A stretch of 24,113 bases of DNA from Escherichia coli (lineage in GTDB: Bacteria; Pseudomonadota; Gammaproteobacteria; Enterobacterales; Enterobacteriaceae). Location: assembly GCF_003334355.1 (NCBI RefSeq), contig NZ_QOWP01000044.1. One strand, written 5' to 3'. Shown here piece by piece: positions 22,698 through 23,839 of the stretch. The position numbers and the translations under genes are program-made. Every line of letters begins with the position of its first letter. Within the stretch, counting starts at the first letter, position 1. The notes below the pieces were generated by a model. The model saw nothing but the letters and a program-made list of their open reading frames with translations. It had not been told where the DNA came from and did not search any database.

Positions 22698-22705
22698 TGA
22701 GTTAA

Positions 22706-23839
22706 TTAAATCCTTAGCAGACGTTTGCAATTTGCAGCCGTTTGTTCTGCATCCTGAATATCCTGTTCAGACATTAAGCATCGCAACGCATCTTTTTCAA
22801 TCCAGGGGTTGTTATTTCCGGCAATTGTTAGCCACATCCATGCTTGTTTATTATCAATTTTAGTGCCTGTCCCCTGAGCATACATTGCCGCAGTCTGGTG
22901 TTGCGCTTCGGTCGACCCCAAACGCGTCGCTTTTTCGTACCAGTGCAGCGCATGATTTTCATCTTTTGCGATATCTTTTGTACCGTACAAATACATTTCG
23001 GCTAACAAAAATATCGCCTCTATTCGCCCACGCTGCGCTGCACCAGTAAGCCATTGAATAGCCTCAGCGTTATTTTCAGGATCATCATTGTTGGTTAAAT
23101 AATATTTTCCCAATTCATACATGGCATCCCCTGCCCCATCTGCTCCATTTTTTGCTGCTTTGGTAAACCAGTACAGCGCTTTTTCCTGGTCCTGTGGAAT
23201 ACTCTCACTTTCGCTATACAACCTGGCAGTATGATATTGCGCATATAAATATCCCTGTTCTGCTGATTGCAAAAACCAACGATGGGCCTGAACCTCATCG
23301 CGCTCCACGCCAATCCCTTGTATATACATTTGTCCCAACTCATACTGGGCAAGGTCATGTCCTTGAGTGGCGGCAGATAAATACCACTGTAATGCTTCTT
23401 CATAATTTCGTAATGGCTCATCCGCAAAGCGTGAGATACGGGCAAGCTTATATTGCGCAGATGCGTTGCCATTTTGGGCAGCAAGTAAAAACCATTTTCG
23501 TGCCTCACTAATATTCTTATCCGTGCCCCTTCCATCGCTATACATGATGCCCAGCGCATACTGAGCATCGATAATATTATGCTGCGCGGCGCGGGTAAAC
23601 CAGTTAAAGGCTAATTTTAGATCCTGTGAAACCTCATCACCTTCGTAATACATTTTGCCAAGAGAATACCAGGCAAGTGAATAGCCTTGCTCTGCAGCAT
23701 GTAAGCAGGACTGGAATACAGAAGATGGATAATAAAAAAGACCTTTTAGTTTTATGGCATTTAGCAACTTTTTATATCCACTATGATGTTGCATTGCTAA
23801 ATTATTGAAGCGTTCTGTTAATTTCCACTTGCGAATCAT
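22706..23839 (-). CDS. Sel1-like repeat (SLR/TPR-like) protein, about 8 repeats, no obvious signal peptide
   Basis: 377-aa ORF with recurring AQYxLGxMYxxGxGxxxDxxxAxxWFxxAAxQG units; AT-rich codon usage by eye; start ATG overlaps the upstream ORF stop (ATGA). An alternative start at Met16 is possible. Confidence 0.7.
   Translation of the reverse strand: MIRKWKLTERFNNLAMQHHSGYKKLLNAIKLKGLFYYPSSVFQSCLHAAEQGYSLAWYSLGKMYYEGDEVSQDLKLAFNWFTRAAQHNIIDAQYALGIMYSDGRGTDKNISEARKWFLLAAQNGNASAQYKLARISRFADEPLRNYEEALQWYLSAATQGHDLAQYELGQMYIQGIGVERDEVQAHRWFLQSAEQGYLYAQYHTARLYSESESIPQDQEKALYWFTKAAKNGADGAGDAMYELGKYYLTNNDDPENNAEAIQWLTGAAQRGRIEAIFLLAEMYLYGTKDIAKDENHALHWYEKATRLGSTEAQHQTAAMYAQGTGTKIDNKQAWMWLTIAGNNNPWIEKDALRCLMSEQDIQDAEQTAANCKRLLRI

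Follow-up and report, generated by a model that had tools for sequence, protein, structure and literature searches.

The 24,113-nt stretch of Escherichia coli DNA analysed here, referred to throughout as the window, carries near its right-hand end the gene gdhA, a 377-codon open reading frame (ORF) encoding Sel1-like repeats and one end of an IS1 element. A preliminary description of the window had treated the ORF as a stand-alone, intact Sel1 gene. Comparison with complete E. coli genomes revealed instead that it represents the 3′ two-thirds of a longer gene for a J-domain/Sel1 (J-Sel1) protein, which has been frameshifted and truncated by IS1. The features of this region are as follows.

21307..22650, plus strand: gdhA.
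22661..22692: perfect 12-bp inverted repeat AATCGTCTGGTT / AACCAGACGATT with an 8-nt loop, between the stop codons of gdhA and the remnant, identified by a repeat search.
22706..23839 (stop codon included), minus strand: 377-codon ORF from the ORF list, the 3′ fragment of the probable pseudogene.
23839..23843: frameshift site, T5 on the plus strand (A5 in the coding sense) where intact alleles have T6/A6, a 1-base homopolymer deletion.
23840..24036 (197 bp), minus strand: upstream fragment of the same gene, residues 205-270, in a frame different from that of the 377-codon ORF and part of a conserved helical middle domain.
24037..24113, minus strand: terminal 77 bp of IS1 (IS1A-like), the end downstream of the transposase gene, identified by a 27/27 match to the terminus.

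The 377-codon ORF was thus present as described, but its left boundary had been placed at 22698, which lies 8 nt past the stop codon. The statement that it abuts IS1 also requires adjustment, as the 197 bp of the same gene at 23840-24036 separate the two. The ORF and gdhA lie on opposite strands and converge, as had been noted, and the inverted repeat between their stop codons is a plausible transcription terminator hairpin shared by gdhA and the remnant. A simple terminator scan did not call this hairpin, its T-tail being too short.

When 5,426 complete E. coli genomes were searched by megablast, the same DNA was found in 355 of them as part of a single 1,944-nt gene encoding 647 residues, annotated as 'J domain-containing protein' or 'SEL1-like repeat protein' and preceded by an 'Hsp70 family protein'. 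The intact allele of E. coli strain EC21Z-137 (L001) was taken as the reference for alignment of the remnant. Global alignment of window positions 22651-24036 with L001 6001-7387 gave a single difference over 1,386 nt, a 1-base gap; the region of the 377-codon ORF corresponds to L001 6056-7387 with DNA identical save for this one indel, and the remnant is 99.9% identical to intact alleles. As the 1-base deletion is the sole difference from the intact allele, the decay of the gene must be recent. Homology to the intact alleles stops exactly at 24036, which is codon 205.

The deletion converts ...AAA ATG ATT... to ...AAA TGA, and the resulting stop codon of the upstream frame (23836-23838) overlaps the ATG of Met271 (23837-23839) in the arrangement ATGA. 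The apparent start of the 377-codon ORF is therefore an internal codon, Met271, exposed by the deletion. Alignment to the intact allele showed that the product corresponds to residues 271-647 of the 647-residue protein, comprising the end of the helical middle domain, eight Sel1 repeats and a C-terminal helix. Upstream of the frameshift, a 63-residue ORF with a TTG start at 23836..24027 (MSPLEEMENGK...SWRKEK) matches residues 208-270. An indel within a run of five or six identical nucleotides falls at a classic site of sequencing error, and the frameshift could on these grounds be an artefact, leaving one continuous ORF for residues 205-647 truncated by IS1 only. This is very unlikely, as the same deletion occurs in two different genomes, that of the window, with its extra IS1 in chbC, and that of the complete genome PSS-12; even without the frameshift the gene would have no J domain, start codon or promoter.

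The IS1 junction and the frameshift were shared with only one of the complete genomes, PSS-12. The IS1 terminus GGTAATGACTCCAACTTATTGATAGTG begins at 24037 (24037-24063) with a 27/27 match, where no chance matches are expected, and a second 27/27 match to this terminal inverted repeat was found at window positions 51-77. The 77 bp of IS1 in the window are 100% identical to PSS-12, where the Prokaryotic Genome Annotation Pipeline (PGAP) annotated an IS1A-family transposase on the same strand, and the transposase gene is directed towards the remnant. The element stands in place of codons 1-204, including the J domain. In PSS-12 an IS1 of 768 bp substitutes for L001 7388-9751. The 2,364 bp lost take in the first 204 codons of J-Sel1, all of the Hsp70 gene and, ahead of the Hsp70 ATG, a further 55 bp. 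The arrangement resembles IS1-mediated insertion with adjacent deletion in having an exact IS1 terminus at the break and, in PSS-12, the loss of the 2,364 bp adjoining the element; nothing about it is unusual, and the far side of the element lies beyond the window. The PSS-12 copy of the gene, 100% identical to that of the window, was annotated by PGAP as a pseudogene, 'frameshifted; incomplete; missing N-terminus'.

The two ends of the window, positions 1-77 and 24037-24113, carry the same IS1 terminus in inverted orientation, exactly 77 bp each. The left IS1 end sits 74 bp into chbC (chbB lies at 236..556 on the minus strand), a gene that is intact in PSS-12. Because of this extra IS1 in chbC, the source strain of the window is not PSS-12 itself; the window has the appearance of a complete contig from a short-read assembly (k-mer 77) with an IS1 copy at either end, derived from an IS1-rich strain related to PSS-12. 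Independent IS1 insertions disrupt the J-Sel1 gene in HUM3355 and UPEC_U013. The possibility that HUM3355 carries a simple IS1 insertion at the same site was ruled out, its IS1 being located about 150 bp away and representing an independent event. IS1 or IS5 has also independently struck the interval between gdhA and topB and the paralogous hscC in several strains (L005, strain A10; L010, HUM3355; matches H136-H140). In strain A10 IS1 removed the entire gdhA-topB interval and topB is truncated.

Relative to the 355 full-length alleles, the copy in the window has lost codons 1-204 and carries a 1-base deletion. The feature is most probably, with a likelihood of roughly 85%, a pseudogene of recent origin: what remains is the 3′ part of an accessory J-domain/Sel1 co-chaperone gene that was truncated by IS1 and frameshifted. 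As the J domain has been removed and the rest is split between two frames, and as in PSS-12 the Hsp70 gene and the sequence directly ahead of its start codon, with any promoter in it, are also gone, the window copy cannot act as a co-chaperone and represents ordinary gene decay. At most it would yield a truncated Sel1 fragment by read-through transcription from IS1, which is conceivable but unsupported.

It is highly unlikely that the 377-codon ORF encodes a functional stand-alone Sel1 adaptor or immunity-type protein, or a fragment that has been neo-functionalised through IS1 read-through. The 377 codons are uninterrupted and would encode a complete Sel1 solenoid that is predicted to fold confidently, the ATG that overlaps the upstream stop codon can permit translational coupling, and the IS1 transposase gene points into the ORF. 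Free-standing Sel1 proteins, YbeQ and YbeT, also occur beside J proteins in the hscC cluster of K-12, YbeQ being 35% identical to the Sel1 region. However, the start is an internal methionine exposed by a frameshift confined to this lineage, while the other 350 or more alleles are all full-length fusions, and a 377-residue form with this start was not found as a conserved stand-alone gene among the 5,426 genomes. The ORF has no promoter of its own, promoter-like matches being no more numerous than in shuffled sequence, PGAP called a pseudogene, and 99.9% identity to intact alleles has left no time for adaptation.

Pfam placed eight Sel1 repeats (PF08238) at residues 58-343 of the 377 (328-613 in full-length numbering), about 76% of the length. 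Six of the matches had E-values of 1e-4 or lower (between 1e-9 and 8e-5) and two were weaker; all lie within the 377-codon ORF, which contains tandem repeats of about 36-44 residues that fit the profile. A product consisting almost entirely of Sel1 repeats, as it had been characterised, is thus close to what the ORF encodes, although this product is not the complete protein. The absence of a signal peptide was also correctly observed, but it carries no weight as the N-terminus is not the natural one.

The intact protein is cytoplasmic and soluble, with 647 residues. The AlphaFold2 model, with a mean predicted local distance difference test score (pLDDT) of 86, opens with three helices that form a J-like unit (residues 1-50). 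A disordered linker (54-101) leads to the helical middle domain (105-300), which is followed by the Sel1 solenoid (310-610) and one last helix. The paired helices of the solenoid, with pLDDT mostly above 90, and the match to PDB entry 4bwr identify it as an alpha-alpha solenoid. Together with the domain searches this gave the overall layout: the J-like domain covers residues 1-50, the linker after it is disordered, a middle domain specific to the family extends from about 100 to 305, and the eight Sel1 repeats (about 310-613) precede the C-terminal helix.

A weak Pfam DnaJ match was found at residues 3-46 of the intact protein (E 5e-4, model positions 2-51 of 63). Profile-profile alignment with hhalign matched residues 2-56 to the J domain of DjlB/DjlC with 96.8% probability and an E-value of 2.5e-10, with nothing beyond about residue 56. 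The canonical His-Pro-Asp triad between helices II and III is absent from the J-Sel1 family. In an alignment of 15 family sequences the triad was R-P-E in 14 and H-P-E in that of E. whittamii, Pro31 and Glu32 being invariant; DjlB and DjlC are themselves HPE J-proteins (PMC10410713).

The middle domain (residues 100-305) corresponds to L001 7085-7702, and its C-terminal third is retained at window positions 23735-24036. It has no Pfam family and no sequence relative in the PDB, and structural comparison gave no fold neighbour beyond its own family. Only 14 cluster representatives were found among 1.84 billion proteins. One distant member, P0128 (467 residues), has the J domain and middle domain and ends in a hydrophobic stretch at the C terminus, which recalls the tail-anchored DjlB/C.

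The closest solved structure to the Sel1 region was c5321/EsiB of CFT073 (PDB id. 4bwr; E 4.9e-87, residues 329-614). With this protein, and with 6ok3, 8sxq and HcpC (1ouv), the family shares the Sel1 alpha-solenoid and strong similarity over residues 329-614. The similarity is confined to the repeats, however, and EsiB and the other solved Sel1 proteins have no J domain, middle domain or Hsp70 partner. The UniProt label 'EsiB' on Klebsiella members of the family was accordingly set aside as annotation carried over from the repeats. An NCBIfam scan likewise gave no specific family assignment, its matches being driven by the repeats.

In intact loci the J-Sel1 gene overlaps the end of an upstream gene for a 566-residue 'Hsp70 family protein', and the pair fills the gdhA-topB interval. 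The J-Sel1 gene is the second gene of a two-gene operon in which the Hsp70 gene comes first. Along its entire length the partner Hsp70 shares 43% identity with HscC of K-12 (E 1e-160), and it scores below the NCBIfam cut-offs for DnaK and HscA. The hallmarks of HscC are a length of 550-580 residues, loss of the segment corresponding to DnaK 76-101, an insertion of 4-8 residues in L1,2 of the beta subdomain of the substrate-binding domain (SBD) and a shortened helix B/lid (Mayer 2021, PMC8215388). Alignment of the partner proteins from L001, L013 and L011 with DnaK showed a length of 566 residues, the HscC deletion in the nucleotide-binding domain (NBD), an 8-residue L1,2 insertion and lid deletions. 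Intact copies of the J-Sel1 gene were always coupled to such an HscC-type Hsp70 gene. The expectation that function depends on a partner gene was therefore well founded; the proposed inspection of what lies upstream when IS1 is absent identified this partner as the HscC-type Hsp70 immediately upstream in intact loci, which is deleted in PSS-12.

The nearest known counterpart is the HscC system of K-12, encoded by the cluster ybeQ-ybeR-djlB-ybeT-ybeU-djlC-hscC, in which the ATPase of HscC is stimulated by DjlC only (PMC8215388). The likeness extends from the Hsp70, with its sequence identity and HscC hallmarks, to the J domain, which is closest to that of DjlB/DjlC with both families departing from HPD, and to the Sel1 proteins, since YbeQ and YbeT adjoin J-proteins in K-12. 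There are also clear differences. J-Sel1 is a single soluble polypeptide that joins the J domain to the Sel1 repeats and includes a novel middle domain, whereas DjlB/C are tail-anchored membrane proteins; the triad is R-P-E rather than H-P-E, the chromosomal locus is another one, and the copy in the window is dead and lacks the J domain. The genes ynjI (L003 5832-6872), ybeR and ybeU (L004 4712-5419 and 7509-8216) all carry a DUF1266 label, which rests on annotation only. A relationship of ynjI to ybeR and ybeU as guild-mates was considered and left unconfirmed, as BLAST of YnjI gave E-values of 0.05 against YbeR and 0.025 against YbeU, neither significant.

Class C J-domain proteins with client-binding repeats of the tetratricopeptide repeat type, such as eukaryotic DNAJC3 and DNAJC7, offer a second comparison. 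There too recruitment of Hsp70 falls to the J domain and the choice of client to a helical repeat domain, but no sequence relationship exists past the domain classes, and J-Sel1 differs in its non-canonical RPE and in having a dedicated Hsp70 encoded next door. By analogy with HscC-DjlC and with the class C proteins, the Sel1 solenoid of the intact module would bind a specific client or partner protein while the J-like domain would dock on the private Hsp70 and trigger its ATPase, so that the chaperone would act on that client. Between the two tandem E. coli paralogues the identity was 90% in the J domain, 88% in the linker, 64% in the middle domain and 33% in the Sel1 region. This agrees with a molecule in which the end that engages Hsp70 is constant and the end that binds the client is variable. 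The number of Sel1 repeats differs among family members from about 8 to 13.

Several points weigh against the interpretation of the remnant as the dead end of a co-chaperone gene. The J-like domain of the family has R-P-E in place of the canonical H-P-D, and stimulation of the Hsp70 is a prediction by analogy. Loss of the Hsp70 gene in the source genome is deduced from PSS-12, the window ending 77 bp into IS1. As the 377-codon ORF is still open, with an ATG that shares bases with the stop codon before it, some translation of the Sel1 fragment may occur. A search of the literature on HscC/DjlC with phage, on DUF1266, Sel1 and J-domain proteins, on Hsp70 in anti-phage defence and on ynjI and ybeQ/R/T/U gave nothing on this module.

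The composition of the remnant is clearly different from that of its surroundings. The 377-codon ORF has a GC content of 0.433 and a GC content at third codon positions (GC3) of 0.392, compared to 0.533 and 0.549 for gdhA, which bears out the earlier impression that it is richer in AT. Both values are the lowest of the 21 genes of the window, the adjoining fragment of the same gene excepted, and the GC content of the remaining genes ranges from 0.489 to 0.581. The Klebsiella module is likewise GC-poor relative to its flanks.

The gdhA-topB interval was surveyed in the 5,426 complete genomes, giving three states.

ynjI: 3,457 genomes (63.7%).
Empty, with a 76-bp junction between gdhA and topB: 1,515 genomes (27.9%).
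Hsp70/J-Sel1 module: 369 genomes (6.8%), of which 355 near-complete.

K-12 has ynjI, encoding a DUF1266 protein, in this slot, as had been stated, and the view that the locus is strain-variable was confirmed by the counts. CFT073 and a derivative of Nissle 1917 are among the carriers of the module; hscC itself was present in 4,410 of the 5,426 genomes. The 'empty-site' arrangement of HH97 was rejected as a common third state, being unique and a decayed ynjI.

Full-length homologues of J-Sel1 were found only in Escherichia (coli, whittamii and fergusonii) and the Klebsiella oxytoca group. The same slot is occupied in Klebsiella and E. fergusonii by a gene for a 566-residue Hsp70 with one to three J-Sel1 paralogues (675-823 residues) downstream of it, always adjacent. 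Tandem J-Sel1 paralogues after the Hsp70 gene number two in some E. coli and three in the Klebsiella oxytoca group (L009 2556-6476; L011 2748-9472; L014 2748-9148). In E. fergusonii (L013 4434-5234) an extra protein of 266 residues with a signal peptide, no Pfam match and no relationship to YnjI is encoded between topB and the Hsp70 gene.

The preliminary description had taken the gene for horizontally acquired cargo. The atypical composition (GC 0.43 compared to 0.49-0.58) and the variable presence in 6.8% of genomes are those of a genomic island. Intact loci, however, consist of two or three module genes only, and no mobility genes, tRNA or att site, or flanking direct repeats were found in them; the divergence between alleles starts directly at the gdhA stop codon and is not bordered by repeats. 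Horizontally acquired cargo is therefore doubtful. As intact loci contain no mobility genes and the same slot is filled in the Klebsiella oxytoca group and E. fergusonii, an ancient occupant that has been lost many times, or exchange of alleles via the flanking core genes, fits better than a recent island.

The same distribution bears on the possibility that the intact array of Hsp70 and J-Sel1 genes is a conflict system, directed against phage or foreign protein, rather than a housekeeping-type chaperone, the window then holding a dead copy of it. The module is patchy and AT-rich, the putative recognition region is 33% identical between tandem paralogues while the N-terminus is 88-90% identical, repeat number varies, and the genes have been inactivated repeatedly by insertion sequences in different strains. 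In other bacteria, moreover, related Sel1 arrays occur in fusions with caspase, kinase and trypsin-like protease domains. This reading is nevertheless unlikely. A comparison with PADLOC-DB v2 gave no meaningful match, the best being short and spurious ones driven by the repeats, with PtuA (40 residues, E 1e-6) and, for the Hsp70, with PDC-M61B (E 3e-4); the module encodes no effector-like domain such as a nuclease, TIR or pore-former, it occupies a fixed slot between core genes rather than a defence island, and support for such a role was not found in the literature. In its more specific form, in which the intact locus would be a chaperone-based sensing or conflict system with a private HscC-type Hsp70 and one to three adaptors of J-like (RPE), middle and Sel1 domains handing foreign or stress-related proteins to the Hsp70, the proposal is equally doubtful.

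Elsewhere in the window, a match to the small RNA family ES036 (CssrF) of Rfam was observed at positions 2301-2343 on the plus strand, in the intergenic region between nadE and cho, with a score of 42.9 bits compared to a gathering score of 37.6.

The window itself thus documents a textbook case of IS1-driven decay, in a sequence whose identical counterpart had already been flagged as a pseudogene by automated annotation. Of wider relevance is the gdhA-topB slot, which is polymorphic in E. coli with three alternative states (ynjI, empty and Hsp70/J-Sel1). The last of these represents an uncharacterised second chaperone system of the HscC type, carried by such well-studied strains as CFT073 and Nissle 1917, and the J-Sel1 fusion supplies a concrete hypothesis as to what HscC and YbeQ/YbeT do in K-12. 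Were the sensing or conflict reading to be true, the window would show that an IS1-rich lineage has lost such a system, and the fusion would count as 'Rosetta-stone' evidence for a joint function of the orphan K-12 Sel1 proteins YbeQ and YbeT with DjlB/DjlC-HscC.

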